Notes under the pieces: generated by a model
Databases searched by the model: none
Told to the model about the DNA's origin: nothing
Seen by the model: only the letters and a program-made list of their open reading frames with translations
Made by a program: the position numbers and the translations under genes
Part shown: piece by piece, positions 160-46,033 of the stretch
Layout: the number at the start of each line of letters is the position of its first letter
Numbering within the stretch: position 1 is the stretch's first letter
NCBI GenBank assembly: GCA_013265495.1
Contig: MU057880.1
Location: forward strand, 1,642,527-1,706,526
DNA from: Vicugna vicugna
Lineage: Eukaryota
DNA length: 64,000 nt
Direction of reading: 5' to 3'

Positions 160-205
160 NNNNNNNNNNNNNNNNNNNNNNNNNNNNNNNNNNNNNNNNN
201 NNNNN
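160..205. other. Assembly gap
   Basis: Run of N. Confidence 0.99.
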
Positions 206-6492: not shown

Positions 6493-7011
6493 TGTTACCA
6501 AGTTCAAAGTTACTCTGCTTGCCACAGGACAGGACAATAAATCTGGAGATGAGGTGTTGGGGCAAGGAATAGTGACTTTATTCAGAAAGCCAGCAGACTG
6601 AGAAGATGGAGTGCTAATGTTCCAGAGAACCATCTTCCCCAAGTCAGAATTCAGGATTTTTTAATACTAAAAGGGGAGGGTGTGTGGTCAGTTGTTGCAA
6701 ACTTCCTGATGTTGGAATCCTTTGTTCTTGCAGCTGTCCAGGTAGGGCAGGTCATGCTATCCCTGGAAACCTTCAACAAAGAAAATATTATTTTCTATTC
6801 TGCAACTTTTAATCTCTATATAAATGGAAAAGTGTCAACCCTTAAAGGTCAGAGCCTTGAGGATGGGCTCTCCTGTCTATTTCAGGCTCTCGGTAACATC
6901 CTTTTACAAAAGGTGCAGAACCAGTGGTGACTGAGCCCAGGAAACAGAGCACAGGGTTAGAGACAAAGGAACAGATCTAATATGGAGTCAGATTTGTTCT
7001 TCCCTAGTACA
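6493..7011 (-). mobile_element. Solo LTR, ERV1-like family A, copy 1
   Basis: TG...CA ends, ~520 bp, AATAAA on the minus strand, homologous along its length to the three other copies. Confidence 0.88.
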
Positions 7012-19043: not shown

Positions 19044-19894
19044 GGCAGTGCTCTGGGCAGTCCCAGGGATGTGTGTCCTGCTTACACAGGTGTTCCGATG
19101 GAACAGACCCGGGAACCCCCGATCCAGCCTCCCACCACCTTCCAGCCATTTTTCCAGTTGCAACCTTCAGAACCAGCCACTCTGCAACCCTCGGTCTCTG
19201 GAACCAGCCAAGACCATCCTTCGAGCTTTGCTTCTTGTTACGGATCAACCTTGAGCCCCCAGATTGGTCAGAATTACTCCACCAGGTGGAGGCTGCCCTC
19301 ACCTGCCCTGTCACCCTGCACCTGTGGGCCCCCTCCACTTACCTCTCTCTGGGCTCCTATTTCCCCCACGACCAGGCAGCTCTGGAGGCCGTGGGCCACT
19401 GCGCCTCAAATTGGCCAAGGAGAAATGCAAGGGCCAAGAGTATCTCTTGAAGATGCAAAGCCAGCGGGCAGCCTCACCCTCTTGCAGAATGAGAAGCCAC
19501 CCCAAGAGGAGCAGGGTGAAACCCAGGATGCTGCGGAAGCACCAGGGTCCTGGGGAAGAACCTGAACCTTTCGGGTCCGTCTGCCCTGGGCTCTGCCTGC
19601 AGACCCCTCCTCCGTGACTTCCTGGAGATGCACCTCCTGGAGGCGCAGGTGAGACTCATCCAGAAGACGGGCGGTGGACCACCTGGCCCTCCTGTGCAGG
19701 TGGGCTGGTCCCCGGGGGCTGGGCTGGTGTCCCTCCCGAAGGCTCAATCCCAAGCATGACTCAGGGGCTCTGGAGGCCAGCGGCCTTGGGGGGGCCCGCT
19801 GGTGTCAGGGCTTCTGCCTGAAGCTTTTCAACCATCTTGGAGCCCTCTCTCCAGCCTTGGACCAAATGGAAACAATAAAGATTTTTGCAACAAA
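19044..19894 (+). pseudogene. FTL: Processed ferritin light chain pseudogene (5'UTR + CDS + 3'UTR, intronless)
   Basis: Pieces in different frames match FTL: LSPQIGQNYST (MSSQIRQNYST; ATG->TTG at 19251), VEAALTCPVTLHLWAPSTYLSLGSYFPHDQAALEAVGH, LAKEKCKGQEYLLKMQSQR, EKPPQEEQGETQDAAEA, DFLEMHLLEAQVRLIQK, KHD near 19752-19760. The 3'UTR gccttggaccaaatggaa is followed by AATAAA (19874-19879) and a short A tail. Imperfect TSD aataacattaatt (19031-19043) / aataattaatt (19895-19905). No introns, several frameshifts. Confidence 0.96.
19071..19107 (+). promoter_or_regulatory. Decayed iron-responsive element (IRE) of the FTL retrocopy
   Basis: gtgtgtcctgcttacacaggtgttccgatggaacaga aligns to the FTL IRE (TGCTTCAA-CAGTGT-TTGGACGGAACAGA). 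The loop has an extra G and the upper stem is broken, so it is probably non-functional. Confidence 0.75.
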
Positions 19895-20029
19895 AATAAT
19901 TAATTCTACATTTTCTTGATTATAATACTGCTGCTGGATAAACAAATGGAGTAAATAAACATTTATTTCATGATATCCATTTGCAGTGAGCTAAGAATAT
20001 TCGAATATGTGTGATTGTATTTGTCTTAT

Positions 20030-20553
20030 TGTTATCAAGTCCAAACTCACTCTTCTCGCCCCATGACAGGCCAATAAACTGGGAGACAAGGTGTTGGGAC
20101 AAGGAATAACGACTTTATTGGGAAAGCCAGCAGACCAAACAGATGTCTGACTAATGTCCTGGAGAACCATCTCCCCCAAGTCAGAATTCTGGCTCATTTT
20201 ATACTTGAAAAAAAAAAAGAGAAGATGTGCTTGGTTGTTGCAAGCTTCTTGGTGTCAGAATCCTTTGTTCTTGCAGCTGTCCACGTGGGTTAAGTCATGG
20301 TGTCCCTGTAAACCTCCAACAAGACAAACGTTATTTTCTATTCTGCAAATTGTTATTTCTATGTGAATGGGAAAGTGTTACATCCTTAAAGATCAAAGCC
20401 CTGAGGATGGGCTGTCCTGTCTATGTCAGGCTCCAGGCAACATTCTTTTACAAAAGGTGCAGACCCGGCATGACTTGAGCCCAGGAAACAGCAGAGAGTT
20501 AGAGCCAAAGGAACAGGTCTGATATCGAGCCAGGTTTGCCCTTTTCTATTAAA
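20030..20553 (-). mobile_element. Solo LTR, family A, copy 2
   Basis: Homologous to the other copies. Minus-strand TATAAAA and AATAAA. Near 4-bp TSD ttat/gtat. Confidence 0.88.
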
Positions 20554-21401
20554 GTATGAAGTACTAATAAAGAGGAATGTCTCTTAAAAGTATTTGTATT
20601 TGGCCATACAGTGATTTAGAGAATTTCTCTGACGTCTAATGCTCTGTTCCTTTTTTAATCTCAAGTTCAGAGACGTTCCCCGTTTCACACAGTGCATATG
20701 GCCAGGGAAAACGGTGTGGCCGTGAAGGACGAGAGAGCCTTGTTTTCTGGAGAGTGAGGCTCTGAACTAGAACCATCAGAAGAAAAGTGGAAACATGAGG
20801 CTGAAAGAGGGAATTTAGAGAAAAAAAGGCAGCGGGGCTACATGGATCGTTTTAAAGAGATTCTCTTTGACTGCATTTCCAGGAGAGTTAGAGCTGAAAA
20901 TTAGGTCCAGAATCTTCCATTTCATGTCCTCTTTAAAAAGGAGTGCCTAATCCAATGTCATAAAGACTGCTTCCAGTTTTTATTTTCTCTAGCAGCCTTC
21001 GTGTTTTACATTTGGGTCTCTGATCTATATAAAATTAAGGTGGTGAGAGTTAGGGGCTCTGATTCATTTTTGTTCATACGGGTTTCCTGGTTGACTAGTA
21101 CCATTTCTGTAAGAGATCATCAAATCTCTACTGCACTGGAGCGAGTGCTTTATTTATGTTTTTTGAACGTGAGGAGAAAAGGAAGCACAGCAAGGTCCTT
21201 TGGCTGTCAAAGCCACAGTTTCCACCCCTGACTGATTTCTGGGGTACTATCTGTATTACCTCAAAAACATAAGTGGATTTGTTAAGCACGTAACTAAATC
21301 AGTGAGGAGGCTCTAGATACAAGAAATTTTCCAAATGAAATGCAAAGTGTCTCTGACAACTTGTTTCTGCCACAGAATGGAAACATGTCTTAGAATAGGG
21401 G

Positions 21402-21421
21402 GTGTGTGTGTGTGTGTGTGT
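21402..21421. repeat. (TG)n microsatellite
   Basis: Directly visible. Confidence 0.9.
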
Positions 21422-21609
21422 CCATGAAGATACTGGGAATAAGACTTTCAAGATAGCCTGGGGAGGTTGTCTTGAGGTTTAAGTGTCATTTCAGTAGTAA
21501 ATGTTTTATAGAAGTAGAGAACATTGCCTTAGATGATGACAAAGTAATAGTAGGGGTAAGATATATCTTATGATGAATTGTCCACAGTGGATACAAAAAC
21601 GTTAAAGTT

Positions 21610-22525
21610 CTTTCTTTGTTTTTTAATTTGCCTTTTCTGTTTCTTTTTTATTGAAGTATAGTTAATTTTACAATTTTGTGTTTGTTTCAGGTGTACAGCA
21701 TACTGATTAAGTTATATATATTATTTTCATATTCTTTTTCATTATAGGTTATTACAAGATACCAAATAAATTTCCTTGTAGGGGAACTATACAGTATGTC
21801 CTTATTGTTTATCTATTTTATATACAGTAGTGTGTATGCACAATCTCAAACTCCTAATTTATCACTTTCCCCTTTGGTGACTGTAAGTTTGTTTTCTATG
21901 TCTGTGAGTCTGTTTTTGTTTTGCAAATAAATTCACTTGTATTATTTTTTAGATTCTGCATATAAGTGATATTATATGATATTTGTCTTTCTCCATCTGA
22001 CTTACTTCACTTAGTATGATCATCTCTAGGCCCATCCAAGTTGCTGGAAGTGGCATTATTTCATTCTTTTTTATGGCTGAGTAGTATTCCTTTATTTATA
22101 TATATATTTATATATATATATATGTATATCCCCCACATCTTCTTTATCTAATCATCTGCCGATGGACATATAGGTTGTTTCCATGTCTTGGCTACTGTAT
22201 ATAGTGCTGCTATGAACATTGGGGTGCGTGTGTTTTTTCAAATTAGAGTTCTTTCCAGATATATGCCCAGGAGTGGGATTGCTAGATCATACGGTAAGTC
22301 CATTTTTAGTTTTTTAAGGAATCTCCATACTGTTTTTCATAGTGGCTGCACCAAACTACATTCCCACCAGCGGGGTAAGAGTGTTCCCTTTTCTCCACAC
22401 CCTCTCCAGTGTTTATGGTTTGTGGACTTTCTAATGATGGCTGTTCTGAGCAGTGTGAAGTGATACCTCATTGTAGTTTTGATTTGCATTTCTCTTATAA
22501 TTAGAGACACTGAGCATCTTTTCAT
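21610..22525 (-). mobile_element. L1 ORF2 C-terminus + 3'UTR
   Basis: Minus-strand [48 protein letters not shown]...[10 protein letters not shown], with a T-rich tail at the left. Confidence 0.93.
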
Positions 22526-24204
22526 TAATATTCTTTCAGCTGCAGCACAAACACACAGAAAAGTAAAATCTAGTGAATACATCATTTTGTAACACAGCAA
22601 CAGTGTGGCACAAACTAGACAGAGTCTTTAACACCAAACTTTATGGAGATTACAAAATATTTGTTAAAAATGCTTGCATGTATGTTGAGCACCAACATTC
22701 ACTGGACATATTTGACTAACCGATACAATTTGAATAATAACAAGATTATCTTTAAAAAGCCCTGTCATTTCAATTCTTTGTGTTCTCATGCCAGCATTAT
22801 ATTGATGGGACTCTATACCCAGAGCGGCTCAGTAGAAGTACTCTGGCTTCCTCAGGGCTTGCTAATCTCCATCCCTGGCTTATTTCGTCCTTGTTTCAAT
22901 AACTAGAGCAATGTGTTTGGGGCATCTCTTAGTGCTTGCAGAATTTCATAGACTGCACTGAACTGACTTTTCAAAATTCACCACAAAACCCAGTTTTACA
23001 TTCATTGCTTTTTCCTATTTTTTATTTTCTATATTCTTCAGGAAATGTGGGACTCCTGTTTGATGTGTTAACCCCAAGAACCACACTGTCCATTTGTGTG
23101 TCATGATAGCATCTTTCTCTCTAGCTGAGGATCTGACTCTACACCCGGTGCCTGTGGCCGGATCGGCATTTTCTCTGCTGCAGTGATCAGAGGTAACATA
23201 GCACTCTCTCTCGGAAAGAATCCCCTCTGATTGGATTCTAGACTGAATGTACATTCCCTGGTGTACAGCTCAGCAGTGCTTTCTGTGTAACATCTTATTT
23301 GTTATGAGACAGATATTTGACATTAATTCATGTTTATTGGGCTGCAGAAAGATGTTTGCATTTAGAAGATGCATGCTTGGTTTTAACTTGCTTTTATATT
23401 TCCATAACTCCAATCTCAATAACTCTACTAACAGCAATAATGATTAAAGAATGTGTTCTTCATAACGTCTCCAACTGGATAACGTATTTCTGAGCTTTTA
23501 TATTATTAAGCCAATGCTCAGGGACAGTGATGATTATGTAGTAAGCTCACTTCAATGCTCTAGTTTTTTTTTTTTTTTTATTGTTGTATTTTCCAAAGAA
23601 CCCTAAGCACTAAAGTAGAAATGATCAGAGAGCCGCGGGTGTACTGAAGAAGTATATATAGTTCAGGACATCAGAGTTGCACCTACCCCGTGGACTCGTA
23701 AATGACACACTCAGGTAATGATGTTAACGGGAAAGGAAATGAGAGTGTCAGAGACAATATGATGGCAAATGGATGTCAGCTGCTGTCTAATACTAACGGG
23801 GACAATTAAAAAAGTAGAGATCAGTGCAGGGGAGAATAAACCTAAGTATTCCTAATAAAAATCCAATTAAAGGAGTACTTACTAGAGATAAAACACATTC
23901 AGTAGAAAGATAACTACATTTCCTGGACGTTCTGAAAAAAAAAAGTGATAATTGCTAATGCTTACAACTTGGGGCTGGTGGCTAGATGGACTCCCTGAAT
24001 AAACACAGAGAGAAAAATTAAGTACTGCCTTATATTAAGGAAGGGACCCAAAGCATGTTTTACCTTTCAAAGTACTTGGAATCCTGGTTTGGTCTCCTGG
24101 TAACTTCAGACAATATTGAGATTAACACAGAGCCAAGGGAAGAACAGAAAGTCATTCTCTGCACACCAGGACACTCAACGTTAGGACCACAAGAAAGGTA
24201 CTTT

Positions 24205-24671
24205 TGTAACCAAGCAGGACCCTGGGGGGCCTTCCAGGGACAGACCCCTCCCCATACCCTCTGCTGTGGCTCCTCTCTGAAGCACCCAGATCATAGCATC
24301 TCATGTCTATTTCCTGAGTGTTTCAGATGCTAAAAACCACCACCAAAGGGAAGAAATTAACTACTTGATGATGGAGAGCATGTGGTCCCCAGACCTGGTG
24401 CCTGGGGGTTGAGAGTGTTGACTGCCCTGTTACTGCAACATCAACCAATCAGAGGACTGTGCACCAGCCGACCACACCCCCTCCAGCCCCACCCCTCACT
24501 TGCTTTTAAATGGGCTTTGCTGTAACATTTCCAGGAGCTTGAGGTTTTCTTGGGCATGAGCCTCCTGGTCCTCCTTCCTGGGCCCTGCAGTAAACCTTTC
24601 TCTGCTCCAAACTCTGCCATTTCGGTTTGACCTTATGGTGTATCGGGCACAGGGACTTGCATTGGGTAACA
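24205..24671 (+). mobile_element. Solo LTR, second ERV1-like family
   Basis: TGTAACC...GGTAACA near-inverted termini, CCAAT motif, TATA-like ttttaaa, AGTAAA poly(A)-like signal, near TSD cttt/tttt. Confidence 0.8.
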
Positions 24672-25167
24672 TTTTATCTTTCTTTCTCTTTTTCCTTCAG
24701 AGTGATAAACTGTATTTGACATCTATCTGTACTTACAACTTAAAAAATCAGATTTGACTTTAGTTCCAATTGTCTAAAACCACGTATCTAGATCTTGCTG
24801 CATCTGAACGTGTTTAGACGTTTTGAAGGGAGTTAAAGAAAACTGAAAGGAAAGTTGTTTAGCTTGAGATCGCCTGAAAAAATGTGAGGGACATCTCAGT
24901 ATTTCTATAGAAGATAAAGAAATTTCCATTTCTAAGAGGAAAAAAAAGAAAGAGTCAGAAGAAGGAGGATTTCCAAGGGAATAACTGGGTTCAAAAATAA
25001 CAAATGAATGAGAAGAATGTTCTCTGAGAATGAAGTCCTGTCTGTGAAGGAGCATTTGTTAGTGACCAAAACCAGTCAACATCCTCTAGAGAGGTCCCGT
25101 TGCCAGAAGTCAGGCTTTCGCAGATTTGCCTCCAGGCGTAAGTGTTTTCATCTTGTGTGACTTTGTA

Positions 25168-25577
25168 CCCGTGTCCCCCGCTATCCAAAACTAAAGCATT
25201 TCTGTGAAACCTTTTGTGAACCAAAATGGTGTAAAGCAAAGTAGCGGTCACCTTCGGACACATCTCGCTAGCAGATACACGACGTCAATGGAGGTAAAGC
25301 TTAGGTGGCTTTGCTGATGCGGAGATGCTGAGTGTGGGTCTCGGGGACGGGGCTTGGCGGGGGCCCCTTCACAGCTGGGGGTGCGCGCTGCCTCTGTGAC
25401 GGCTTGGCTGGCCACAAAACAAACGCTGTCTCTCCACTTCTCACCTTGTTTTTTGGTTTTTTTTTTAATTGAAAATCTTCTTTGGATTTCTTTCCATTAG
25501 CAAAACAGGTATTAATGTAGGATTTTCATGAAAGCAAGGTGGTATAAAGCACACTTTGGAAAAGTGAAGGATACCTT
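25168..25577 (-). mobile_element. Tigger-type (Tc1/mariner) non-autonomous DNA transposon
   Basis: TA on both sides; degenerate TIRs gtgtcccccgctatccaaaa / tttggaaaagtgaaggatacc. Confidence 0.75.
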
Positions 25578-25618
25578 TATTTGGAAATATCAGGTGGTTT
25601 AATATGAGGTTATAGCTA

Positions 25619-25942
25619 TAAAAAGGAATAAAATAATGCCATTTGCAGGAACATGGATGGACCTGGAGACTGTCATTCTAAGTGAGGTAAGTCAGAAAGA
25701 GAAAGAAAAATAGGGTATCACTCAAATGTGGTATCTTAAAAAAAGGAAAAAAAAAAACAAGAGGACACTACTGAACTCATCTACAACAGAAACAGACTCA
25801 CAGACATGGTAAACAATCTTATGGTTCCCAGGGAAAGAGGATGTGAAGGGATACATTTGGGAGTTTGAGATTTGAAAATGTTAACCACTGTATATAAAAA
25901 TAGATTTTAAAAAAAACCAAATTTCTTCTGTATTAAAAAAAA
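25619..25942 (+). mobile_element. L1 fragment truncated at both ends, with TSD
   Basis: L1 3'UTR ending early in tattaaaaaaaa. TSD gaggttatagcta (25606-25618) / gaggttctagcta (25943-25955). Confidence 0.85.
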
Positions 25943-28449
25943 GAGGTTCTAGCTAATGAGAGTGTGGGGTGGGGGGACAGGGAGAAACCTCACACCCTTC
26001 TTACTCTGCTAACTGCTGCATGACCTATGGATCCCAATACCTATGCCTGATCCACCCTGGGGTTCATATGGCTGCTTCGGAGACTGAAAATGAGAAGGGA
26101 GCAGAGAGGCAGTCGAGCAAATGACTGAAACCTGTTCACCATCCCAATTACTTTGATTGGAAAATGGGGAACTTCCAGCTGAAGCTGCCCCTGCAGAGCC
26201 TCGCTCCCCTCCCAGCTCACCTGAAGGGCTCTTACTTCCCACAAGTGGGTTAGCCTGTCTCCAGACAGTTAGCCCAGAAAGTCAGTGAGAAATTAATGGA
26301 ATCTAGAGAGGACACTTTATTGTCCTGCTGTGTTCCAGGTGAGGAAATTTGAGCTCCACATAGCATGTACAACCAGTAGAAAGCTACACAGCTTGCGATT
26401 GGCCAAATTTATACTAGGGCATTGCATTTTTGTAAGTATGTTCGCACCTTTATACCTTTGTTTTTTTTTAAAAAACGTGTTTGCGTAAAGATTCATTTAC
26501 AACTTCACAGAAAATAAGACTTAAAAATACTGTGCTATTAGAAAAAATCAAGTCCTTTCTTTAAATTAAAAACCAAAATCAAAACAATCTCTTAGAATGC
26601 AATTAACCTTATAAACTGTCTTCTCATAACTTAAGTTTCTTCAAATATATGTATGTATCTGCATGACTGGGACACTGTGCTGTATACCAGAAATTGACAC
26701 ATTGTAGTTGACTGTACTTCAATTAAAAAAAAACAACTCAGGTTTCTTTTAATAGAGTTGATATGTCCAAAGTCTTTGATTGGCAAGTACATCTATTAAT
26801 TATTCCTACAGAATGTTTTAAGAAGTCCATGTAAACATATTGAATTTATACTTGCTAATTACTCTGTTCTTCTGAAATATCTTTTTCTATCCTTTCAAAT
26901 GACAGTGTTACTAATAATTGAGGTTTTTTTAGGTATGTTGCTTTTATTCAAGATACATTATTGTTTGGTGCATGTACAGATATGTTTAAGTAGATCTAAA
27001 TAATATTTGTATAGATTTGTATATGTGGTTCAATATCTGCATCTGCGTATTGGGTTTTGTACTTTAAATGTGACAAATAAATCTTTTGGGAGGAAAAAAT
27101 ATACCTTTGCTTTTAAAATGTGTGTAGAAGGTTCTCACTTCCTTGTTATCATCCCCGTATTTATTCTGTCTCTTGATTTCAGCCAGCCTTATGTATTTAT
27201 TCATGACAAACCCTTTCCTGGGGCTTTCGGCACGGTTGGAAAATAATGAGAAATCAGGTCTATAATTAATCAGATTTTCTCTTTACTTATTGAAAAACAG
27301 AAACTTTAATGGTACGTGGTTCTATTGGTGAAGCTCTCGAGCGTTCGACTGCTTACGATTCAGCACATCAAACTGAAACAGAGGGTTACGAAGGTCAGAT
27401 GCAGTTTGTAAAAGCGCTTTGAACTTCCTTATGTACATTTTCATACATTTGTATCTTTATGCTAATTGGTTCTTGACAGCTTTTATTTATGTTAGTAACC
27501 GCCACCTGGATACATGGACTGGCAAAATGTCTACACTGAATTGTGAAATGTGGCTGAGAATATAGGTTCTAGAGACTTCTAATAGCTCCAAGTGGCTTGG
27601 AGATCTTGAGTGGGTTGATTTCACCTCTTAGTTTTTGCTTTTGAAAAATGGGAAAAGGGCACCTCCCTTATTGGGCTGCTGTTAAGTGTTAAAAATCTCC
27701 ACATGCACACGGAGCACTTAGAATAGGGGCAGCAGGACCAGTGAGCCCTACAAGGCTGTTTGCTGTTGATATTATTAGCACTGTTACTAAGTGTTTAGAC
27801 TTTGAGACTGATATTCCAGGTTTATTGCAGGTTACATTTTCCACACCATGTTCTGTTTCTCTCTCAGTATTAATGTATATTCTTTTGCTATATATTACTT
27901 GTATTATAAGTAATTTTATAACCTATGGGAATAGGGCAGATTATACACTGAAAATGAAATAAGCTTCCTAAAAACAAAAACACAGAAAATAGGGGGACAG
28001 AGATTAACATGGCACCCCACATGTGCAGAAATAACAGAGCTCAACTGGCAAGGTGGCCTCGGTCTAAAACATATCAAGGCACATGTCATAGAACCAACAA
28101 TAATAATAATAACATCTAAACTAGCGTAAGTCAGCACTAACATACAGGAACCTTTTTAAAATTTTAGTTCTTCCCTGGAAATTCAGGACTTTGCATCAAG
28201 GGCAAACAAAATGGCTTACATCATTGCCCTTAAACAAGACAGACATCCACGGTGAAATGAGCAACTTGCTTTAGGCTCAGAGGGGAAAAAAAGTACAATT
28301 CTTAAATTTTACCATTGTCTCTATTTTACTGTATATTTTAGTTTACTTTAATTGTTGGTTTTAGTGTGTACTTAAATACAGTGCAAGTAATGGGCCCAGT
28401 TTGCATGCATTTTAAAAACAACCTTAAATATGTGAATTAAGATGTGATA

Positions 28450-31400
28450 AAACTACAAGGAAAAACTGACACATTTTTTATTGCACAAAAGATTCTAACA
28501 ATTGTTTTAGTAAATAAGTCAAGCAGACAAAAAATTGGACTAAAAATTATATACAATTTGATAAACATAATAAGCTTAATTTGTTAGACATAAGTCAATA
28601 CATATTTTACATATAATATATAATTTTCTTCAGCAAACAAAATATGCTTTTCAAAGTTACATGAACTCAGATACAGGGCAAATTCTAAGGAATTAGTATA
28701 ACAGAACCATGGACTTGGATCACAATGAAATTAATGATATTAAGTTCCATGGAAGTAACAATGACAACCACAAAACCAAAATTCCAATGTGTGTAGCACT
28801 ATAAAAATTGCAATAATATACGAGTCTAATAAGAAGTGATAGGAAAGTTAAAAATGATTCATAACTAACAATAATGATGAATACACAACATATCAAGTAT
28901 TTTATGATTTGGATAGATGAACGATTGAAGGAAATATGTAACCTTAAACATCAGCAGAGAACAAATGCTAAGATTATGTTGAGGCAAATACTTAATACGA
29001 AGCCAAGAAAAGTAGAATGGAGGTAATGACTATAAAGGCAGAAAAATTAATAAAATAGAAAGCAAAAAACAAGTGGAAATTATAAGGTGGGACAAAAAAT
29101 AAGTTTTTTGTTAAGTCTAGTAAATTTTAAAATTCTAACAAGAATCATCAAGCATCAAGAATTCATATGTTAACAGCAGTATAAGTTAAAATTGGGATAG
29201 AACTAAACAATGGAAAACTACAAAAACAATAATGGAATGCTATAAAATACTTTGTCACAATAATTTTTAAATGTAAATGTATAACTAGACAAATATCATT
29301 TTTAAATGAGTCCCCCCAAAATATATAGAAAACATAGATATCCCTTAATCAGGCAAAAGAGGAACAACAATTTAAAATTTTTACAAAAGGTAAAACGGGT
29401 ATCAGTCATCGTCTCAAGGAAGCCATCTTTCCAAATTTTTAGAAACCTTCCTGGAAACTGTAAGCTTTCAGTCAATGTTTTTTTCAGTAGGCTAGTTTTA
29501 TCCCAGTCCTCAACAGGAAAAAATCAAGATGAAAAATTAAAAATATAGGACAATTTTACTTAGGAACACAGATGAAAAATCACCAAGAAAATACTAGCAT
29601 CCTGTATCTAGAAATGTATTAAAATGTACCACGAATGTAATGAAATTATTAGAAGGCTGCAAGTCTGGGTTAACAATAGAGAACATCTTAATGTATTGTG
29701 CTAGACAGTATTCTTTTTCCTGTCCATCCATTGCCTCTACTTGGGTGACAGTTCTACTTCCCTGCCCCATTGTGTCAGCCTGAGACAGGCAGTTTGCTTT
29801 CAGTGATGAAATCTAAGTTCAGTGCCAGGCAGAAACTTCAAACGGCAGCATAAGCTTCCTCATGATTATCCTTCTTTCCTTCTTTAAGAGAGAAGCTGTT
29901 CCATCAGCATAGATCTTGGATTGAAGACAACTTGGACTCGGGCTGCAGGCAATCTGTGATGGGCACTTAGCATGAAAAAGAAATGAGCCTCTGTGGTTCT
30001 AAGCTACTGAGTTTTGGGGGCTGTTGGTTACCGCAGCTCATCCTGACAGATTTAGTATTTTATCACATTAAGAACTTAAAGGTAAAAATTTAAATAAATC
30101 ATCCATTGTTCTGTAAAATCTTGCAATAAAATTCAACACTTATTAATGACAAAAAAAAAGTAAAATAAAATGAAAGAAAGTATCCTTACCCCAACAAGGA
30201 AAGCCTACAATAAACAATAGAAAAGAATGGTAAAATGTTAGAAACATTCTATTTAACGTCAGGAATAAGAAAAGCATGCTTATTATGTAAATATATAAAT
30301 AATATATATAAATATATTCAAATATATTACTTCTTGTGTTGAAGTTCCTAGTCATCACAAAAAGTCAAAGGAACAGAAACAAAATAAGTACTGGAAAAGA
30401 AGAAAAATAAATCTCTTTACTTACAGAGATTTGCTTACTTACATAAAAACTCCTAAATAATCTATAAAGTATCAGAATTAATATAAGAGTTTAAAATGAG
30501 ACAAGCTATATCAAAACTGATTGTATTTTTATAGACAAGCAGCAAAGAGAAAATCTTTCAATGAAATATACCATGTAAATAGCAGAATGTGAAATCATCT
30601 AGGAACAATGTTTAAGAAATGATAGAAGATATTTGTAAAGATTGCTATAGAACTATGCTGAAGACCATTTTGAAAGACCTAAACCAGAGAGAAGCATAGC
30701 ATGTTGCTGACTATCACAAATAGGCCATTTTATTTCAAATTGATAAATACGTAAAATGTGATTCTGATTAAAATTCTAACATTATTTGTATGGGATTTGA
30801 TAAGACTGATCTAAAATTTATATGGCAAAGTAAAGGGCTCAGACTATACAAAATATTCCTGGAGAATGACATGCAGCAGAGACTTGCCTACTAGATGTGA
30901 ATGCACAAGTAAATGCTACAGTAATTTAGAGTATATGCTGGTGACATAAGGGTAAAAAAGAGATAAACTGAACAAAGGCATGAGCATTGAAATGTTTCTG
31001 CACGTATATGAACTACAGAGATGGCACTGCAGTTCAGTGAGAAGAGTTTTCTTTAAATAGTGCCCTGATCACTGATTATACTTATCCAACATAAACCAAC
31101 AAAATGGGTAAACAAAATTTAATTTCAGGCAAATTAAACCCTTATGAGTGAAAAAAGAGAAACATTCAGGAGTTTTGTTTAGTGATGTCCTCAAGGACTG
31201 AGAAAAGACCTGGCACATGGTAGGTGCTCAATAAATGATTTGAATAAACATGTGATTATATGAAATCAGAGTAATGAGTGATTCCATGGGACATTTGTGT
31301 CTATAATAAACCATAAAGGAAATAATTAATACATTTTGCTAAGTTAAAGTAAAAATTTATGTTTATCAAAGGACACCATTAAAAAATATCAAAGCATAAG

Positions 31401-31620
31401 CTCCAAACTGGGAGAGCATATTTGCATCAAATACACATTAAAATATTAGTGTCTAGAATATATAAAGAACACTTACAAATCAGTAAGAAAATGACAGACA
31501 ACTCATTTAAAAACATTTTTAAAAGACATGAACAGTCATCTGGTGAAGAGATAATAGAAATCATTAGTAAACATATGAATAGCAGGAAGACTGCTCTATT
31601 AGTAATATTTTTCTAAGCTA
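28450..31620 (+). mobile_element. Old fragmented L1M ORF2 region with an MLT1-like LTR (~29697-30050) and an L2 tail (~31180-31250) inserted
   Basis: A-rich degenerate ORF2 motifs (ctaaaatttatatgg, gtgtctagaatatataaagaacacttacaaatcagtaag). MLT1-type end ctactgagttttgggggctgttggttaccgcagc. Confidence 0.65.
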
Positions 31621-32839
31621 GAGGTGGAAACATGGGTGTTTAACTTGTTAATCAGTATATTTATCTCATAAATAGACAGCTACATGTATATAGATACATA
31701 ACCTTTTGAAGTCTGAGACAACATAAAGAAAAAGATAGTAAAATTAATAAGAAGCAATGTCTGGATAGGAACTCTCTTAAAAAGATACTCCTTGTAAGCT
31801 AATAATAATAACATTAAAAATAATGATTGCTAGAATTTATTGAGTGCTTTTTATTTAGCCAGCACTAACTTGATAATTTGACATATAGTTTACATAATTT
31901 TACATAATACCTACCTGTACATATGTTGAATAGAAAATTGCCCCTGTCTCATAAAATGAGATTTTAATAGATTCCATCAAACCATAAACATAATTTGAAG
32001 ATTAAGAAATATACCTTTCTCCAACTTTTTGGACTCAAGACAGAGAAATACTAATAAAAATGGACGGTGGCCGATCTTACCTGGGCGGATTTCAAAGACG
32101 CTTCTCCACACATATTATTGAGTGTGTTTGAGGTATCCATCCACCGGCACGTTCATGACCAGGATGGATCACTGTGGCCATGCTTCTGCAAAGGGAACTT
32201 CATTACGCCCTCTGCCTGACTCCTTGGTGGTTCATCCTTCATTCCTTTGCAACAAAATGAATTCTCTGAATTCAGTACAGTGGAAGAACTCATCATGATT
32301 ATTCATTCACAGACTTGATATTGAACGGCTGCAAAGGACCAGAACCTGCTCAACAACCTAACAAGCTCTCCAGGAGCTTGCACTGAGCTACATTGAGCAA
32401 TTCTTTATTCTTTACCTGCTACCAAGACATCATTCTCTGGCCAATATTTCTTTCTGTAATGAATTTTGTTGGGGCCAGTGTCAGACACTGGGCAAACATT
32501 TCCAGGAGCAAAACTGCAGGGACAAAATAATTATGCCCAAAGATCAGCTTTACTCCAGCTCCTCTGCCTGAACAGAGCTCGGGGGACCCAGTGCTTTTTC
32601 ACCTCCAAGGCTCTGGAAATCCACTCGGGGCTCTTTCCTGGGCCATCCTCCAGTAAACAGTTGTTCCATCATATAAGTGCTCCTGGAGAAACTTTCTCCT
32701 GTGTCACACACCCATGTTTTTTGTCTAAATCACGTTGCAGTCTAGATTATCAATTAATTTTTGTTGTTGTTTTCACTTAATTTTTTCACTGCCGAATACT
32801 GTATGGCATATAATACTGACATTTACAGTGATCCTAGTA

Positions 32840-33353
32840 TGTTACTGAGTCCAGACTCACTCTGCTCATCACAGGACAGGCCAATAAATCAGGAGACGAG
32901 ATGTTGGGACAAGGAATAACAACTTTATTTGGAAAGCCAGCAGACCTAGAAGATGGGGGACTAATGTTTTGGAGAATCATCTTCCCCAAGTCAGAATTCA
33001 GGCTCCTTTTATACTAAAAGTGGAGGGAGTGTAGTTGGCTGTTGCAAACTTCTTGGTGTCAGAATCCTTTGTTCTTACTGCTGTCCATGTGGGTCAGGTC
33101 ATGGTGTCCCTGTAAGTCTCCAACAAGACAAATGTTCTGTTCTGCAACTTTTTATCTCTATATGAATAGGAAAATGTTACACCCTTAAAGGTCAGAGCCT
33201 TGAGGATGGGCTCTCCTGTCTATGTCAGGCTCTAGGCAACCTTCTTTTACAAAAGGCGCAAAACCAGCATGACTGAGCCCAGGAAACAGAGCCCAGGGTT
33301 AGAGCCAAAGGAACAGATCTAATATGGAATCAAGTTTGTTCTTCCCTATGACT
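32840..33353 (-). mobile_element. Solo LTR, family A, copy 3
   Basis: Homologous to the other copies. Minus-strand TATAAAA (33007-33013) and AATAAA (32924-32929). Confidence 0.88.
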
Positions 33354-36139
33354 ATCAGGGAGCAGATCGGGCAGCAGGTGACTGGCAGCCATGTGTGCAT
33401 GCCATGATCTGTTGCTAGGTAGGCTGAGTTCATACTCCCTGCCTACGTGCCCCCTTGCACCTCCTCTGAGCGGGTGTCACCATTTCTGGGGGCCCTGCAA
33501 ACTAGACATACTGAACAGTTTATCTGTGCTCTGCATTTTGTACAACAGATGGCCGGCGGGTGGTTTTTACATATGAGAAGTAAGTGGAAGTGGCATGCTG
33601 AATGCTCTATAAATACACAGCATGCTAAGCACCCTTTTGCCAAGCACTTTTTATTCTAATATGGACGTAGATCCTGTGACAGGTCTGCTGTTATGAATGC
33701 AGATGTACGGCATAATTATCTTCACGGTAAAAATAGGATGATTAGGACAAGGACTCATGCCTGCTCTTTCATCTTCCACATTAAGCTGCCTCTGTGTCCT
33801 TTGCTAGAGGCATGGGACACTTGTTGGGTGAAGAGGCATGAAGCTCACAAGGTCGTTTTGTGAACTTCTCCATCTGGATGGATCAGAAGCATAGGAGTAA
33901 ATGTCAGCTGTCATTCTCACGTGTTGGCAGACATCGATGATAATCTGTTGGACTGACTCAGTGGTCTCAGTCGACATCTAAACTTCCCAGAATGATTGCA
34001 GACTTTCCTGGGAAAGGCTGTGGTGGGAGGACACTCAAAAGGTCAGAAATGCAGACAGTAAGTTATAACCATCAATGCTTCCTTGAAATAAGATCTGTGT
34101 TTGGTCTCTTGGGGAATTCGTTGAATTGATTTAAGGCTTACACCAACCTTCTCCCCTCCAATAATTATTTGCTTGTTACTAATTCTGATAACGGTGACAG
34201 ATGTTGAGAAAACCTCTTATAAGCATGGGGCCCCGGCATTTTCCACACTCATGCACTATTTTTAAGACAGAACTTATATTTAGAAGTGCTTCTTAGGCAG
34301 AGTTTAACTCTCAAGCTGTAGGCAACGTTCACACATACGGATTGATCTCAGCATGAGTGTTTCTGAGTGTGGGTGTGTTCTCTGCATCCTTAATGGGTTG
34401 TCTAGTCCAATTCTATGATGTAAAATTGCAAGCTAATAAATAAGAAATGAAAATGACTCAGCTGAGGGCAATGGTGATCACATTTGTAAAGAAAGCAAAT
34501 CCTTTTGAAATAACGTGATCTTGTAAAGTTGATTTGAAGGCTATAGCGAACTGTTACGGCTAATTGTGTCGATCTGTGATTTAGCTGATGAGGAAATCTG
34601 CCACTAGTTATTCTTTGAATAGAATAAATTACAAATTAATATTTTGGAGGGAGAAAAGAAAACACAACAGATGCAAGAGATACTGGGATTATTCCTCATT
34701 GATTTTATTTTCATCCACAAAGCTCATCTTCATTTTGTGTATTTTCTTGCTGATGTAAATTGTAGTCAGTGAAAGAAAATTTATCAATGAATGATTCTTA
34801 TAATAAGCATGTAAGAAAATCAAGATTTGCTGCGTTAATGATGTGTCAGGGTAAGGAGCAATTGTCAGGAGACTTCATAGGCCAAGAAGATGGTCCACAC
34901 CTGCTGAGACCTGGGGACATGTGCTTAGAACTTTCCATAAAACATGTGCACATGGGGAAAAGGTGAGCATTAGAGCCTCCTGTGCCAGAGCAAAGAAAAA
35001 GCGAGCCTTTGGGGTTAGGATAGCTATATCTGACAGTGTTTCTATTTAGTTTAGACACCTGTGCTGGAGCCTAATCAAGTCTCTGCCCTACCCTGTGTTC
35101 CCCACCCCAGGACATTTGCACACCCTTCTCTTTCTGCCCCCAGTACTCTTCTCTGCCTGCACCAATTGACTCATCCCAGAGACTCCACCAGGCACTGTCC
35201 CTGCAGATCTTTGTAGTCTCACTGCCAAATGCACATTAAAGTCTTTGTACAGAGATCTGTTAAATAAAGAATTACATGCTAATTACTGGGGATCAGAAAT
35301 AATCAAATGAGGATCTCTGCCTTGAGAAACTTACAATATGAGATCCTTGAAATAAGCCTCCAGGGAAGACTGCCTTTTCAGGCTGTTGAAGCAATCTTTT
35401 CTCTTAGGCAGAATTTTGGTTTGTCAGTTTGATAAAAGCACTTAAAAGGATTCTTCCTGGTCAGGCCAGCCTCCCAGGCATAGAAGAAAGAGCAGTGTCA
35501 GTCTCTTTTCCCAGCCAGTGCCATTAGCTCATCTCCACTGGAAGCTTTTCTGGGGGGAGAGAGAGAATCAGAGCAGCCCCAACGTCCTGAGCAATCTCCC
35601 CATGAGCGGGAGGGACCGCGGCGCAAGGATACCAGCGCCTCTCCTGCCCTGCACAACGCTCGCTTTAGGATGACAGGACCCTTTTATTAGCAACTCAGAC
35701 CCCTCCTATTAATTCCCCATGTTTTATAAAATGGAAGTTAAATAAAAATGATCCACGATAAAGAATGAAACAGGAGGGGAGAAAATAACACAATTTTGGA
35801 ATCAAAGTCTACTTCCTATTTTTCCAGGAAAAAAAAAATTGTAATGTTAGCACGATTCTGGAGAGAAAAATCCCATTTCTGCGTGTTTGCTGTGAAGAGG
35901 AAAAGAGTAAATGGTAATAATAAATAAATTTGAGATAAACATTTCAAAGCAATGGAAATATCAAAACCAGTTTAAATTTTAAAATCCTGTTTTCTAATAT
36001 ATAAACTGCAGATAACGTTTGATCTATAATATTAATATCTATATATCAATAAATGAAATTATAATGTAAGTGCTTTGATTTTTTAAAAAATCACAAAATG
36101 GAATTTTTTTTTAAATGTGAGTCATTATTAGCACAGTAA

Positions 36140-36345
36140 TGAAGTGTAGACTTTGGAGTTAGATTCTTATCTTGACTCCGGGCTCTGCCACTTACTGTGT
36201 GATCTTTGGGCAGGGGGTGGTTACTTAATTTCTCTGTGCCTCTGCTTCCTCATCTGTAAAAATGGGAAAATATTAAGTGAGCTAATTCATGAAAATTGTT
36301 TTGAAGAATATTTGCACTCATTAAAGGCAAGCTACCACTGTTATT
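36140..36345 (+). mobile_element. MIR SINE
   Basis: ctctgccacttactgtgtgatctttgggca...ctctgtgcctctgcttcctcatctgtaaaaatggg core. Similar MIR remnants lie near 27570-27730, 49840-49970 and 52950-53110. Confidence 0.8.
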
Positions 36346-36683
36346 AAAAATATATAAATAATCACTGTTATTAATAAAATAGTAGTCTGGATAACACGGC
36401 CTGATTCTTCATTGTATTTCATTCCTTGCCATTCTCAAGATGAGTTAACGGTACCCTGTTTCTTCCTCAGTAATGCTGACACCCCCTGAGCATCTGTGCC
36501 CAGACTCTCCTGATTTTGCTTCACTTTATGGTTCTCAGATGACCCAGTCATGAACTTTCTTCTTTTAGATCTTTTCTCATCTTAGTTTCCACCCTACATG
36601 TCCTTTTTCCCCCATCCTTATCCCTCTCTGCCTACCTTCCCAGCTCATCCCCCAGGGCTCTTTCTTCACCCTATCGAGCATTA

Positions 36684-36999
36684 CAGTCAGTGCACCATGT
36701 CTCCGCATCTGCAGATTCAATCAACCACTGATGGAAAATATTCGGAAAAAAAACATTTCCAGAAAATTCCATAAAGCAAAACTTGACTTGCCGCACACTA
36801 TCAACTACAACTATTTTCACAGCACTTAACGGCATATTTGGTATTATAAGTAATTTGGAGATGATCTAAAGTAAACGGAGGATGTGTGTAGATTACACGC
36901 AATTACTACAGCATTTTACGTAAGGGACTTGTGCATCTGGGGATTTTGGTACCCACAGGGAGTCCGGGCAACCAGCCCCCTGCAGATACCAAGGGACTG
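36684..36999 (+). mobile_element. MER2/Tigger-type DNA transposon
   Basis: TA-cagtc...gcatctgcagattcaatcaacc...ggaaaatattcggaaaaaa...gcagataccaagggactg. Confidence 0.8.
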
Positions 37000-37219
37000 C
37001 ATATTGAAATCATCTCTTTGTTAAGCTGGCTCTCCCACTAGGTCAGAAAAAGCATAAGGGCAGGAATCTCTTTCATTTTTTTAATCTTGTGCCCTCTGAG
37101 CCTATCTCAATAACTTATGTTCAGTAAATGAGAGATAAATGAATAATTAGGATTATCAACTGATATAAATGCACTATTGTTTATTGGAGAGAGATCCTTT
37201 CTTCCATTGGAGTTTAGAC

Positions 37220-37430
37220 CAGTGGTTCTCAAGCCTGGCTGTGCATTAGCACCTCCAGGGAGCTTTTAAAAAAACAGCTTCACTCGGGACCCACCATTCT
37301 AATGATCAGAATCCCTGAGCAGTAGTGCTCAGATATAAATATTTTAATTTATATATATTTTTTTCAGACACGAATATTTTTAAAAGGTCCCAGGTGATTT
37401 TATTGAAACACCTTAATCGAGAATGCTGGT
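37220..37430. mobile_element. MER5-like hAT element
   Basis: cagtggttctcaa...gagaatgctg termini. Similar MER5-like remnants lie at ~39275-39410 and ~59545-59682. Confidence 0.7.
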
Positions 37431-40254
37431 CCAAAATAATATATTTTTAATATTCAGTTCATAAGAATATTTGTAAACAAAATTTAAAATCCCCCCCCCC
37501 CAAATTGAAAATCCTCTAAATCTAAATCCTTACCCCTGGTGGTATACCTTTAAGAGATTCTAACTAATAACAAGCATTGAAAAGCCTGTGAAGTTTTAGA
37601 TGTTTATTACTCACTTTTCCAATAATTTTATGTAGTGTTATTACCCTAGAGCCATGAAAGTTATTTTCTGTTTTCGTCAGGTAACCCAGATGAGGTGAGT
37701 ACAACTGTGCCTGCAAGATTTATTTAGCTGCAGAATTGGGTTGTTAAGATGTCAGTTCTCAAATGTCCTACCTTCCATTTGGGTCATGGTAAAAAAATCT
37801 TATGTGAATAATGAATTTTAAAATTTTAAGTCAAAATGTCCTCTCTCGAATGCCCTATATGCATCTGAAGTTCCCAATTAAGACTCTAGTCACTGAAACT
37901 TCTTACTGGTATTTCAAAGTTCAGAGATGTCCTTGCTTGCTATTTAAATCTTAGTCTGCACTTACAGTCACTAAAGAATGTTACAGATGACTGTATCTGC
38001 TCCCCTAATCAGAGTGAGGACAATACAGGTAAAGTTGAAGTTTCTTATGTGTAATTTCATGGTTGATAAGAATCAAAGTGAGAAAGTTAAGCTAGATCAT
38101 TAATTACGTTTATGTCCTAACAATGTTTTCTGTTTTACAAATATTTAATTCAACATAGCAGAGTTCATTTTCGGCCTTTGAGATTTGAAAGATGTTAGAG
38201 CTACAGCTCTTATTTTTATTTTTAAATACTGCACCTATTTTAAAAGAGATAATTTTCTTGTCAATATGTCAACATTTTGATAGGAAAATATTGCTATTAA
38301 ATTCTTATATCATGGGGTTTTTCATCTTCAAATCATTGCTATTTATAAAAACTTGGATATCCTAAAAAAAAAAAAAAACCAATGAAGCTAGTTTAGTAGC
38401 TCCAATTTCCTTTGTGTTTGGAATTTCCTTTTATTGATTGGTATCAAATTTTCCTCTGTTTTGCATACTCAGTTGAAAAGTTGAAACTCAATTTAATGTT
38501 TTAACATGTCACGAAACTTGGATGGATAATGAAAATATTAGAAAATAAGTTCTGATCATCCAGTTTACATTGTCGAGATGAAATTTTCTAAAGGTAGACC
38601 AGAAAAAAACTTCTAAAATTAAAATACAAAATGTAACTTTGGGACCAAAAATATCCCAAGAAAACTGGCAAAGTAAAAAAGAAATGTTAAATGATTTCCA
38701 ACGGTTTCAGGCTAAAATACAATATTTGCTTCAAACTTAAAATACCACTATGTTGTTTAGTATTTTTAAAGCATTAAAGAAAAGGAAGAAGAAAGGATAT
38801 TGGAGATTTTGATCAGCCAATCTGTCAGCTGTGTTAGTTACTTTTTAGTATTGTCTTCAGGATTTGAGGATTACCATTATTGTCAGAAGGTAATATCTGG
38901 GTTTCAAATTGTGCTTAGTTCAGGGGATGTGAACACTAGCAATCCTATTTTTATTTATATTTAATCCATGCTATGTAGTCTTTGAATGAAGTGCTAAGTG
39001 AAGGCTGATTGAACAGGCAACAGTTTGAACATAATGATTGATTCTGTTTGAAAACTTCCTTTAATTTTCTTCCCCTTCTATATTAGAGAACTTTTCTCTG
39101 CATAATTTTAACATCTAACAGTTGGTGGAGGCCAACCTACACACATTTAGCTCAGAGGCTCCGGAATCCGTGCTCGGTACCAAGCTGTATTTCAGGGCTG
39201 CATGACTGAGCTCAGGAAAACTTGAGCATAAGTAAAGGTGTGACTTTGCAGTATTCTCGGTATTCAATATGCATTCAAACCTCCTGGGTATATTGTTAAA
39301 ATGCAGATTCTGATCCAGTCAGTGGAATGTAGATGGAATTCTGCCGTTCTAATAAGCTCAGGTTAATGCCAATGTGACGGGTCCATGGACCACCCTTTCA
39401 GTAGCAAGGAGTAGACTGTTAAGAGTTTTGCAACTGTTTGGGTCTCTCAATACCAATGCTTCATTAAACAGATCAACTTTTTTTTTAAGATGGAAAATTT
39501 TAAGGATAAGCAGACAACCATCAAACTCTGCATACATTTTTTTTAATGACATCCACAATTTAGAAAGACATCTTGAGAAAACCTTTGATGTAATGGAGAA
39601 CTAGGGAGACCATTACTGCTTATATATAACTGATTAACTGGTGGCAAGGATAACTATTTCCGTTAATTCAAAACTCACTATAATTACACTCCTTTTAACC
39701 AAGTCTGTGTCTCTGGCTCTACCACATCATTTAAGACAGTTGGCAACCAACCAACAACAACTTCAAGACAGCGAATTCCACCTAGTAGTGAGACCAATTG
39801 AGGAATGAAACTCGGAGTGATGAAACTTGCAATTTGAAAGATACTAGAGCTATAGACCTTGATTTTATTTTTAAATATTCTACCTGTTTTAAAGAGATCA
39901 TTCCCCATGTCAATATTTTGATTGGGAAAAATTGCTATTGGCATAAATTTTTGCATCACGGAGTTTGGGATAGACATGGTGCTGTCAGGCCATCTGAACT
40001 TAAGCCACAGCAACCAGGATCGTGGACTGCAAAATCTCCAATCAAGTCAAACTTTTATAGAACAGATATTCATGTGAAATATATATCCTGCAAAGTTTTC
40101 ATTATTTTACCTGAAAAGCAAGAGGAATAATTATAAATGATAATTTTTTATCTTTTCACTAAATATTACCAGAAGTCCAGAGTACAGGTTTCTTCTACTT
40201 GTAAAACTCAGCTTTGATTCAGACTGAATGTTCTAGATGCTAAATGACAAACTT

Positions 40255-41640
40255 TTTAAAATTGAGGTATAATTGAAAAATAAGAATTGTATGTATTTAA
40301 GGTACACAACTTGATGTTTTGATATGTGTGTACATTATAAAATGATCACCACAATCAAGCTAATTAATGTATCCATCACCTCACACAGTTACCATTTTCT
40401 TTCTTATTTTGTGTCTGTGTGATGAGAACTCAAGATCTACTCTCTTAACAAACTTCAAGTATTCAATATAGTATTATTAAGTGTAGTCACACTGCACATT
40501 AGATCTTAGAACTTATTTATCTTGCAAACAGAAACTAGGTACCCTTAGGGCAACATCTCCACACTGGCCCCTCCCCTCTACCTCTGGCATCTGCCATTCT
40601 ACTCTCTGCTTCTATGAATGTGACGATTTTAGATTCCACGTATAAGTGAGATCATGCAATATTTGTCTTTCTGTGTCTGCTTATTTCATTTAGCATAACG
40701 TCCTCCAGTTTCATTTATGTTGTTCCAAATGGTAGAATTCCCTTTCTTTTAAAGTCTGAATAATATCCATTGTATACATATACCACATTCTCTTTATCCA
40801 TGCATCAGTTGGTGCACATTTAGGTTGTTCCTGTATCTTGGCTACTGTGAACAATTTGTTGCAATGAACATGAGAGTATAGGTATCTCTTTGAGAGCCAT
40901 GCATGTCAACTGATCTTCCAAGAACATACAATGAGAAAAGATAGTCTCCTCAATAAATGGTGTTACAAAAATAAAATATCTAAATGCAGAAGAATAAAAT
41001 TGGACCCTTATCTCACGCTATATACAAAAATCAACTCAAAGTGGATTAAAGACTTAAATGTAAGACCTGAAAATATAAAACTACTAGAAGAAAACATAGA
41101 GAAAACTCCTTCGCATTGGTCTTGGCTATGTTTTTTTTGGATATGACACTAAATGCACATGCAACATAGTAAGAATAGACAAGGGAGATTGCTCAAACTA
41201 GAAACCTTCTGCCCAGTAAAGGAAACAATCAACAGAGTGAAAACACAACCTACAGGATGGGATAAAATATTTGCAAACCATATATCTGATAATAGGTTGA
41301 TGCAAAAATATGTAAGACACTTACTATTAAAAACACAAATAACCTGATTAAAACATGGGCAAAGGACCAGAATAAATGTTTCTCAAAACACTGCTAATCA
41401 TCAGGGGATGCAAATCAAAACCACAGTAAGCTATCACCTGACACCTGTTAGAATGGCTATCATCAAAAAGTCAAAAGGTAAAAATGTTTTCAAGAATAGT
41501 AACACTTGCATAGTTTAGGCATAAATGCAAATTGTTATAGCCATTATGGAAAACAGCATAGAGGTTTCCTAGGAGTTAAACATAGAACTATCATGTGATA
41601 CAGCAATCCCACTTCTTGCTATATACCTTCAAAGGAAATA
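40255..41640 (-). mobile_element. 5'-inverted L1 (antisense 3' end 40255-~40895; sense ORF2 piece ~40896-41640)
   Basis: The plus-strand ORF2 piece ([10 protein letters not shown]...[35 protein letters not shown]) ends at caaaggaaata, and the antisense piece continues the consensus at tctcaaagagatacc. Confidence 0.85.
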
Positions 41641-42064
41641 ACAAATTACTTTTAACATTTAAATTTATTTTCCTTATTCCATTTTTGCTAAGGACAATGC
41701 CATGAAGTAGACTCTAAAAATCATTTACATAATAAATGTTTATTTATTGCTTATATGTGTTCCCACATGTTTTCCCAAAACAGATGTACTGATGATGTGC
41801 AATGATCTTACTGCTTTAATTTTGTTGCTTTTTTCCCTAAGGGTGCTGAATACTTTTACCCTCTTCCTTTTTGTCATACATTTTCATCATATTACTTCTG
41901 TTTTAGGAAGATTTACCAAATAACTACATGAACTTGAGTTGACAGGTGCAGTAACTCAAATATTTAATGAACAAAATGAATCACATTTACCTTGGTTTAC
42001 CTAGAATTGGAGATGAAGAACTAATATTTTCATATTAAAGTTCTGACTATGTGATAGCTAGGAC

Positions 42065-42597
42065 TGAAACAGAGAAGAAATAATCTGACTTCATATCAGA
42101 TCTGTTCCTTTAGCTCTCACCCTGCGCTCTGTTTCCTGGGCTCCGTCACGCTGGTTCTGCACCTTTTGTAAAAGAATGTTGCCTGGAGCCTGACATAGAC
42201 AGGACAGCCCATCCTCAGGGCTTTGATCTTTAAGGATGTAACACTTTCCCATTCACATAGAAATAACAATTTGCAGAATAGAAAATAACGTTTGTCTTGT
42301 TGGAGCTTTACAGGGACACCATGACCTGACCCACGTGGACAGCTGCAAGAACAAAGGACTATGACACCAAGAAGTTTGTAACAACCACACAGACCCCCTC
42401 CCCTTTTAGTAGAAAAGAAAGTTGAATTCTAACTCAGGTAAGACGGTCCTTTGGGATACGAGACCACCATCTTCTCAGTCTACTGGCTTTCTGAATAAAG
42501 TTGCTATAAATGTAATTAAACTCCCTGCCCCAACACCTCATTTCTTCATGTATTGGTCTGTCATGCAGCAAGCAGTATGAGCATAGACTCAGCAACA
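42065..42597 (+). mobile_element. Solo LTR, family A, copy 4 (opposite orientation)
   Basis: Reverse complement of the other copies. TG...CA ends, AATAAA near 42494, near 4-bp TSD ggac/ggat. Confidence 0.9.
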
Positions 42598-43039
42598 GGA
42601 TCAAAACAGAATAAGATTTAAATGCCTTAGTTGGTAATATATGGGAAAATATTTTGAAAAATATTTAAATGTTTTAGTCCTAACATCAAATATAAACAGT
42701 GAAACAATATTTTGAAGCCAAAACAATAAATCTGAAGTATTTAGAGTAGAAACATAAATGCACTATGCACAGACTCTTGAGTAACAGATGAAAAATATTT
42801 AAATTTAGGGCAAAGTTTAGAAATAGACAATCTTCCAACAATAAGACAAACATGTTTATATATCCTCTATGCTTAGTAGTGTAAGAAAAAATAAAATATT
42901 TTTGTAACAATAGTTGTTGCTTTTCTAAAGTTTTAAATACACAAAAAGTACTGACTAGCCTCAAATCTCCTGGGGAAACGCACATATTTCCCTGGACCAA
43001 GCTGTTAAAAGTAGATCAGTAGTATCATATTGTAAATAA

Positions 43040-45838: not shown

Positions 45839-45955
45839 GGGGGAGGGTATAGCTCGGTGGTAGAGCGTGTGCTTGGCATGCAGGAGGTCCTAGGTTCCAT
45901 TGCCAGCACCTCCATTAAAAATACATAAATAAACCTAATTTCCTTCCCACTCAAT
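45839..45955 (+). mobile_element. Camelid tRNA-Ala-derived SINE (Vic-1-like)
   Basis: GGGGGAGGGTATAGCTCGGTGGTAGAGCG... with A box (45850-45860), degenerate B box (45893-45904) and the characteristic tail attaaaaa...aaacctaatt. Confidence 0.9.
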
Positions 45956-45957
45956 AA

Positions 45958-45979
45958 GGAGAAAGAGAGAGAGAGAGCG

Positions 45980-46029
<50 letters not shown>
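45958..46029. repeat. Compound microsatellite (GA)n(GC)9(GA)n
   Basis: Directly visible; the (GC)9 run spans 45977-45994. Confidence 0.97.

Positions 46030-46033
<4 letters not shown>

Follow-up and report, generated by a model that had tools for sequence, protein, structure and literature searches.

A 150-bp tract shared by two inverted solo LTR-like repeats in Vicugna vicugna: a candidate recent gene conversion

How did two diverged repeats, located 22 kb apart and in opposite orientation, come to share 150 identical bases? The question is raised by a stretch of 64,000 nucleotides of the Vicugna vicugna genome (contig MU057880.1, positions 1,642,527 to 1,706,526), which is analysed here in full and referred to as the window, and whose own coordinates are used throughout. 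Comparison of the window with itself yields four copies of one repeat of approximately 520 bp, all of them within 36 kb, with copy 4 inverted with respect to copies 1–3:

6493..7011, minus strand: copy 1, same repeat family, unconverted control; no TSD found
20030..20553, minus strand (LTR sense): copy 2, 524 bp, aligning end to end with the other three copies; CA end, TATA-like box at LTR position 351, poly(A) signal at 435
32840..33353, minus strand: copy 3, same family, between copies 2 and 4, unconverted control; no TSD found
42065..42597, plus strand: copy 4, 533 bp, inverted with respect to copy 2; TG...CA ends, poly(A) signal at LTR position 430

Read in LTR sense (the minus strand for copies 1–3), all four copies have a CA terminus and two of them a TG start. 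The motif AATAAA is present at LTR position 425–435 in the four copies, a TATA-like box at 341–351 in two, and a 4-bp near-TSD also in two (copies 2 and 4), and no PBS-like start was found downstream of any of the four. From these termini, near-TSDs, promoter and poly(A) signals, and from the lack of a PBS-like start, we read the copies as putative solo LTRs of an endogenous retrovirus. The label ERV1-like is an assumption based on the 4-bp TSD, and the family is presumed to comprise thousands of copies genome-wide. No Pfam family matched any of the 205 stop-free frames of at least 62 residues in the window. In a search for further copies of the family, a 24-nt motif from the window had no match in metagenome contigs, and a 20-nt motif had three matches in metagenome contigs and one in viral contigs, all four attributable to chance and extending over no more than 36 nt. 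Copy 2 also carries an expanded A run (20207–20218), approximately 100 bp from the shared tract, at which the other three copies hold a shorter A/G stretch.

Several other elements surround these copies. A frameshifted, intron-less retrocopy of ferritin light chain (19040–19900, plus strand), with a poly(A) signal and an A-rich tail, ends approximately 130 bp from copy 2; two of its frames match ferritin light chain, with best E values of 2.4e-6 and 7.6e-4, and the LTR sense of copy 2 points into the retrocopy in antisense. A second group of repeat fragments, 67–84% identical and found in both orientations (2424–4233, 9187–9678, 13706–14139, 21611–22480, 25614–26736, 46296–46508, 50537–51154, and 58938–59102), presumably represents L1 3' ends. 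The self-comparison also revealed a direct repeat pair of 143 bp outside the other repeat groups, with 74% identity and its members 1.6 kb apart (38183–38320 and 39832–39966). Finally, a short tRNA-like SINE (near 45845–45920), which we take to be camelid Vic-1-like, lies beside a GA microsatellite with a CG run inside it, the two together covering 45845–46030.

The shared tract occupies the homologous position in both copies, and is accompanied in the adjoining sequence by shorter perfect runs:

20314..20463, no strand assigned: tract in copy 2, LTR positions 91–240, identical to copy 4 at 150/150 bases
42156..42305, no strand assigned: tract in copy 4, LTR positions 92–241
20261..20312, no strand assigned: perfect runs beside the tract between copies 2 and 4, 30 bp (20261–20290) and 19 bp (20294–20312)

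The tract in copy 2 equals the reverse complement of that in copy 4 at every one of its 150 bases, and is limited by mismatches between both copies at 20313 and 20464. It is the longest exact match of the window (the runner-up, between copies 1 and 3, reaches 43 bp), and no indel is present at either edge, so that the replacement would be gap-free and at exactly homologous positions. Copies 2 and 4 differ at 69/223 sites in 20031–20259, 4/54 in 20260–20313, 0/150 in the tract, and 21/87 beyond it. Over all non-tract columns, 92/359 sites differ between them (25.6%), the highest value of the six pairs, and their longest perfect run outside the tract is the one of 30 bp. Within the tract, the differences from both copies amount to 24/149 sites for copy 1 and 17/145 for copy 3 (12–16%). 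Thus, the original prediction was right about an exact reverse-complement tract, about both LTRs being diverged outside it, about three differences in the adjoining 53 nt or so (at 20291, 20293, and 20313 within 20261–20313), and about copies 1 and 3 being unlike both others inside the block. Due to its position upstream of the TATA-like box, the tract probably lies in U3.

Chance is a poor explanation for such a run. In 100,000 shuffles of the match vector of copies 2 and 4, the longest run had a median of 20 and a maximum of 65. When a Sawyer-type test was applied to the 160 polymorphic columns, copies 2 and 4 agreed at 30 consecutive sites, while no run exceeded 16 in 20,000 permutations, which places the p value at the floor of the test (5e-5); under the same test none of the other five pairs showed a significant run (p 0.14–0.91). 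The prior identity of the pair in the tract region is estimated at approximately 79%; after scaling for the slightly lower local divergence, some 31 differences would be expected in 150 bp, and the probability of observing none is approximately 1e-15. As a negative control, the longest exact match among the presumed L1 fragments is 31 bp. The 43-bp match of copies 1 and 3 (6838–6880 and 33181–33223) corresponds to the LTR portion in which the tract lies, and is not significant by permutation.

The grouping of the four copies changes locally. Sites joining copies 2 and 4 against copies 1 and 3 amount to 11/144 in the tract and 4/359 outside (Fisher p=3.5e-4), and because of this enrichment the tract can be said to carry changes private to one copy. 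As these 11 informative sites cover only 20329–20434 (106 bp), its true length is approximately 106–150 bp; its right end falls in a stretch that is also common to copy 1 (a 24-bp match, 6901–6924). The 53-nt block flanking the tract varies rather little among the four copies, with 4/54 differences between copies 2 and 4 and 6–10/54 in the other pairs. Since it is kept in all copies and holds no site joining copies 2 and 4 against 1 and 3, this block is not counted as converted. A longer or older tract was also considered and rejected, given the absence of such sites in the flank and the fact that, once the tract is removed, none of the six pairs is significant (p 0.11–0.94).

These observations are probably best explained by a single, recent, and non-reciprocal gene conversion between neighboring solo LTRs of approximately 80% identity, an event known from one assembly. 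Three of five features of non-allelic LTR conversion were found, namely identity beyond background, local regrouping of the copies, and unexchanged flanks. The non-allelic conversion originally proposed thus stands as the best explanation and has passed all internal tests; its reality is probable, as judged from a single assembly, and the adjoining flank, which had been mentioned together with the tract, adds no support.

According to the model, one of the LTRs or its immediate vicinity would suffer a double-strand break in the germ line, and the broken end would invade the inverted copy 22 kb away as a template for repair, either through a fold-back loop or on the sister chromatid. Pairing would take place on short perfect runs—such as the 30 bp that survive beside the tract, any runs inside it having been erased—and the runs in 20261–20312, as the longest surviving pre-existing homology, are a possible pairing site. 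Approximately 106–150 bp would then be copied, erasing around 30 differences, with a resolution without crossover, of the synthesis-dependent annealing type. A CpG-island-type hotspot at the neighboring ferritin retrocopy was discarded, as its GC content is 60% but its CpG o/e only 0.28. Either copy may have been the donor: site patterns leaned to copy 2, with a likelihood ratio of 13 (approximately 5 in scale-free form), but in a leave-block-out control the test misclassified true copy-4 blocks as copy-2-like, with lnLR up to 8.3 and 6.0.

The event would be young. The 0 differences in 150 sites bound later divergence at 2.0% (95%), and the corrected distance between copies 2 and 4 elsewhere, 0.31, is at least 15 times this bound. 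At 5e-9 per site per year, a value derived from the rate and generation time given in the available text of PMC8605555, its age would be below about 2 million years, and at an assumed 2e-9 it would be below about 5 million years. No function is implied for the tract.

An assembly error is an unlikely source of the tract, although it would produce precisely such a lack of differences. It would require that gap filling, the choice of a path through the graph, or polishing had overwritten the homologous part of one copy with the bases of the other. The maximal tract length also equals a common read length, 150 bases being usual for short reads, and the assembly was scaffolded, as indicated by a gap in the window:

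160..205: run of 46 N, the only one in the window, approximately 20 kb from the tract

However, 150 bp is an upper bound, with informative sites over 106 bp and a right end common to copy 1, which makes the match to read length weak. Moreover, no perfect run of more than 30 bp exists between copies 2 and 4 outside the tract, which is short for a graph jump, and reads would be expected to map to their own locus before one diverged by 20–25%. Both tracts lie within one gap-free stretch, and the partner of the tract is a neighboring copy. Regarding read data, 19 of the 24 runs listed (seven studies, two organisms) contain 66–90% of 261 words sampled from 19000–21500. Because the words of the tract are present at either copy, these shares support the locus, and do not bear on the tract or on the artefact.

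An exchange that involves the flanks can be evaluated by means of the target sites of copies 2 and 4, which read as follows:

20026..20029, plus strand: left near-TSD of copy 2, TTAT, matching its partner at 20554–20557 in 3/4 bases
20554..20557, plus strand: right near-TSD of copy 2, GTAT
42061..42064, plus strand: left near-TSD of copy 4, GGAC, matching its partner at 42598–42601 in 3/4 bases
42598..42601, plus strand: right near-TSD of copy 4, GGAT

As assembled, the target-site flanks agree at 3/4 and 3/4 bases, and if swapped at only 1/4 and 1/4. A fixed inversion is therefore rejected, since the flanks fit the assembled order and not a swap. Both the near-TSDs described beforehand for each copy and the argument drawn from them against a fixed inversion are hence sustained. 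The likelihood ratio computed for unswapped flanks (>1e4) is optimistic, given that the LTR ends were set by alignment after seeing the data, although its direction is clear. Outside the tract, 11 sites pair copies 1 and 4 against copies 2 and 3, a grouping that hints at two subfamilies; they stand on both sides of the tract, nine before and two after, and agree weakly with no exchange of flanks, two sites being little on the latter side. Flank continuity is uninformative on an inversion, as no repeat that recurs in the window directly encloses either LTR. An inverted segmental duplication or palindrome was rejected, because homology ends at the repeat (alignment of 20038–20536 with 42082–42589) and the flanks of copies 2 and 4 share none. 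In addition, the intervening 22 kb had been proposed to be inversion-prone. This is conjectural, because the perfect identity of 150 bp falls below the minimal efficient segment of approximately 200 bp described for rodent cells by Mansai et al. (PMC3924818; according to this work, shorter homology may still allow conversion), and because the flanks are unswapped; no inversion was seen.

It is very improbable that a third source—an unlinked copy or an LTR-derived cDNA—supplied the tract to both copies, or that the tract results from two crossovers, or from inversion followed by re-inversion, accompanied by conversion. Precedents exist, as human LTRs have been reported to receive tracts from several donors, unlinked ones included (PMC4921805), and yeast elements to be converted by way of cDNA (PMC6598467). 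Nevertheless, a third donor requires two events with matching limits. As for an exchange, a pure reciprocal swap moves sequence without making copies identical, a single crossover is rejected by the unswapped flanks, and the sites that pair copies 1 and 4 against 2 and 3 on either side are distributed as expected without it, with the weakness already mentioned for the two after the tract.

That the tract is simply a well-conserved segment of the LTR family, or that selection on a common enhancer preserves its identity, is hardly credible. Divergence is indeed somewhat lower here than across the remainder of the LTR (19/144 sites inside and 59/361 outside between copies 1 and 3), and the tract lies within the probable U3. 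However, the two available controls, both of them local copies, depart from the tract at the 24/149 and 17/145 sites given above, and both stand together against it at 11 sites, a figure near the per-site rate at which copies 2 and 4 each stand against both controls elsewhere (35/358 and 43/360). Moreover, selection is not known to yield 100% identity at every non-coding site over such depth.

Gene conversion between the two LTRs, the preferred reading, has well-described relatives, which are compared here on the basis of the available portions of the published texts. Trombetta et al. (2016; PMC4921805) described non-allelic conversion among human LTRs, including solo ones, with maximal tracts of 14–450 bp (mean 99), mainly in U3. 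The vicuña case resembles those events in its short LTR tract, 100% identical to a paralogous LTR, in its probable location in U3, and in its intrachromosomal donor. The human events, however, were recognized by population resequencing on the Y phylogeny, as clusters of 2–8 SNPs with minimal tracts of 3–86 bp, whereas here a single assembly suggests that around 30 differences were erased over at least 106 bp. The length of 106–150 bp fits published tracts, both those of human LTRs (14–450 bp) and those of duplicates, with a mean of 250 bp according to Harpak et al. (10.1101/135152), who also report that conversion slows with divergence.

Partial conversion between Alu elements, of which 98 cases were collected by Doronina et al. 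(2021; PMC8230782) and whose same features were reviewed by Fawcett and Innan (2019; PMC6598467), likewise produces mosaic dispersed repeats and, according to both works, favors neighbors, as is the case here. Unlike copies 2 and 4, known from one assembly, the Alu cases were required to be present in two data sources and supported by orthologues. For Alus, an optimum of 89–100% identity and a range of approximately 10 kb are cited, in contrast to the ~79% and 22 kb of this pair, values that lie outside the reported favorable ranges and count against conversion, and conversion has been described to fall sharply at approximately 80% identity (PMC3924818).

In camelid genomes, tracts have been detected with GENECONV between the LTRs of one element, in 1,765–1,908 elements per species (PMC8605555). 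LTR–LTR conversion in camelids is the subject of that survey and is probable here, but there the two LTRs belong to the same element and run in the same direction, whereas copies 2 and 4 are independent insertions in inverted orientation; the word 'solo' is absent from the main text of that survey. No published account of this locus was found in a literature search covering main articles. Conversion between LTRs and between Alus is thus already known, and the case of copies 2 and 4 differs from it in degree only, by divergence and distance.

Inverted homologous repeats that flank a spacer can also yield inversions by non-allelic homologous recombination. Copies 2 and 4 share this arrangement with inversion-mediating repeats, but their flanks are unswapped, and their homology is confined to one repeat of approximately 520 bp at ~79% identity, rather than to long, near-identical arms.

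The weight of the finding is small, as it concerns a single event of a type already published, and the window has no recognized intact gene (no Pfam match in the 205 frames). It would grow with population polymorphism, repeated tracts, or inversion alleles. If the event is real, repeats that are tens of millions of years old and diverged by approximately 20% would still exchange sequence over 22 kb, which would bear on the dating of repeats and on the annotation of their subfamilies, and a block of probable U3 (enhancer-type) sequence would have moved between loci. A more far-reaching reading, which we consider quite unlikely, is that of a germ-line conversion still polymorphic, having taken place at approximately 20% local divergence with only short perfect homology (of which 30 bp survive), far below the usual threshold, and leaving a 150-bp inverted seed that restarts concerted evolution. 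If it were true, the population should harbor additional tracts or infrequent 22-kb inversion alleles, and the locus would offer a natural case in which homeologous recombination reopens exchange between repeats that had seemed to be beyond it.
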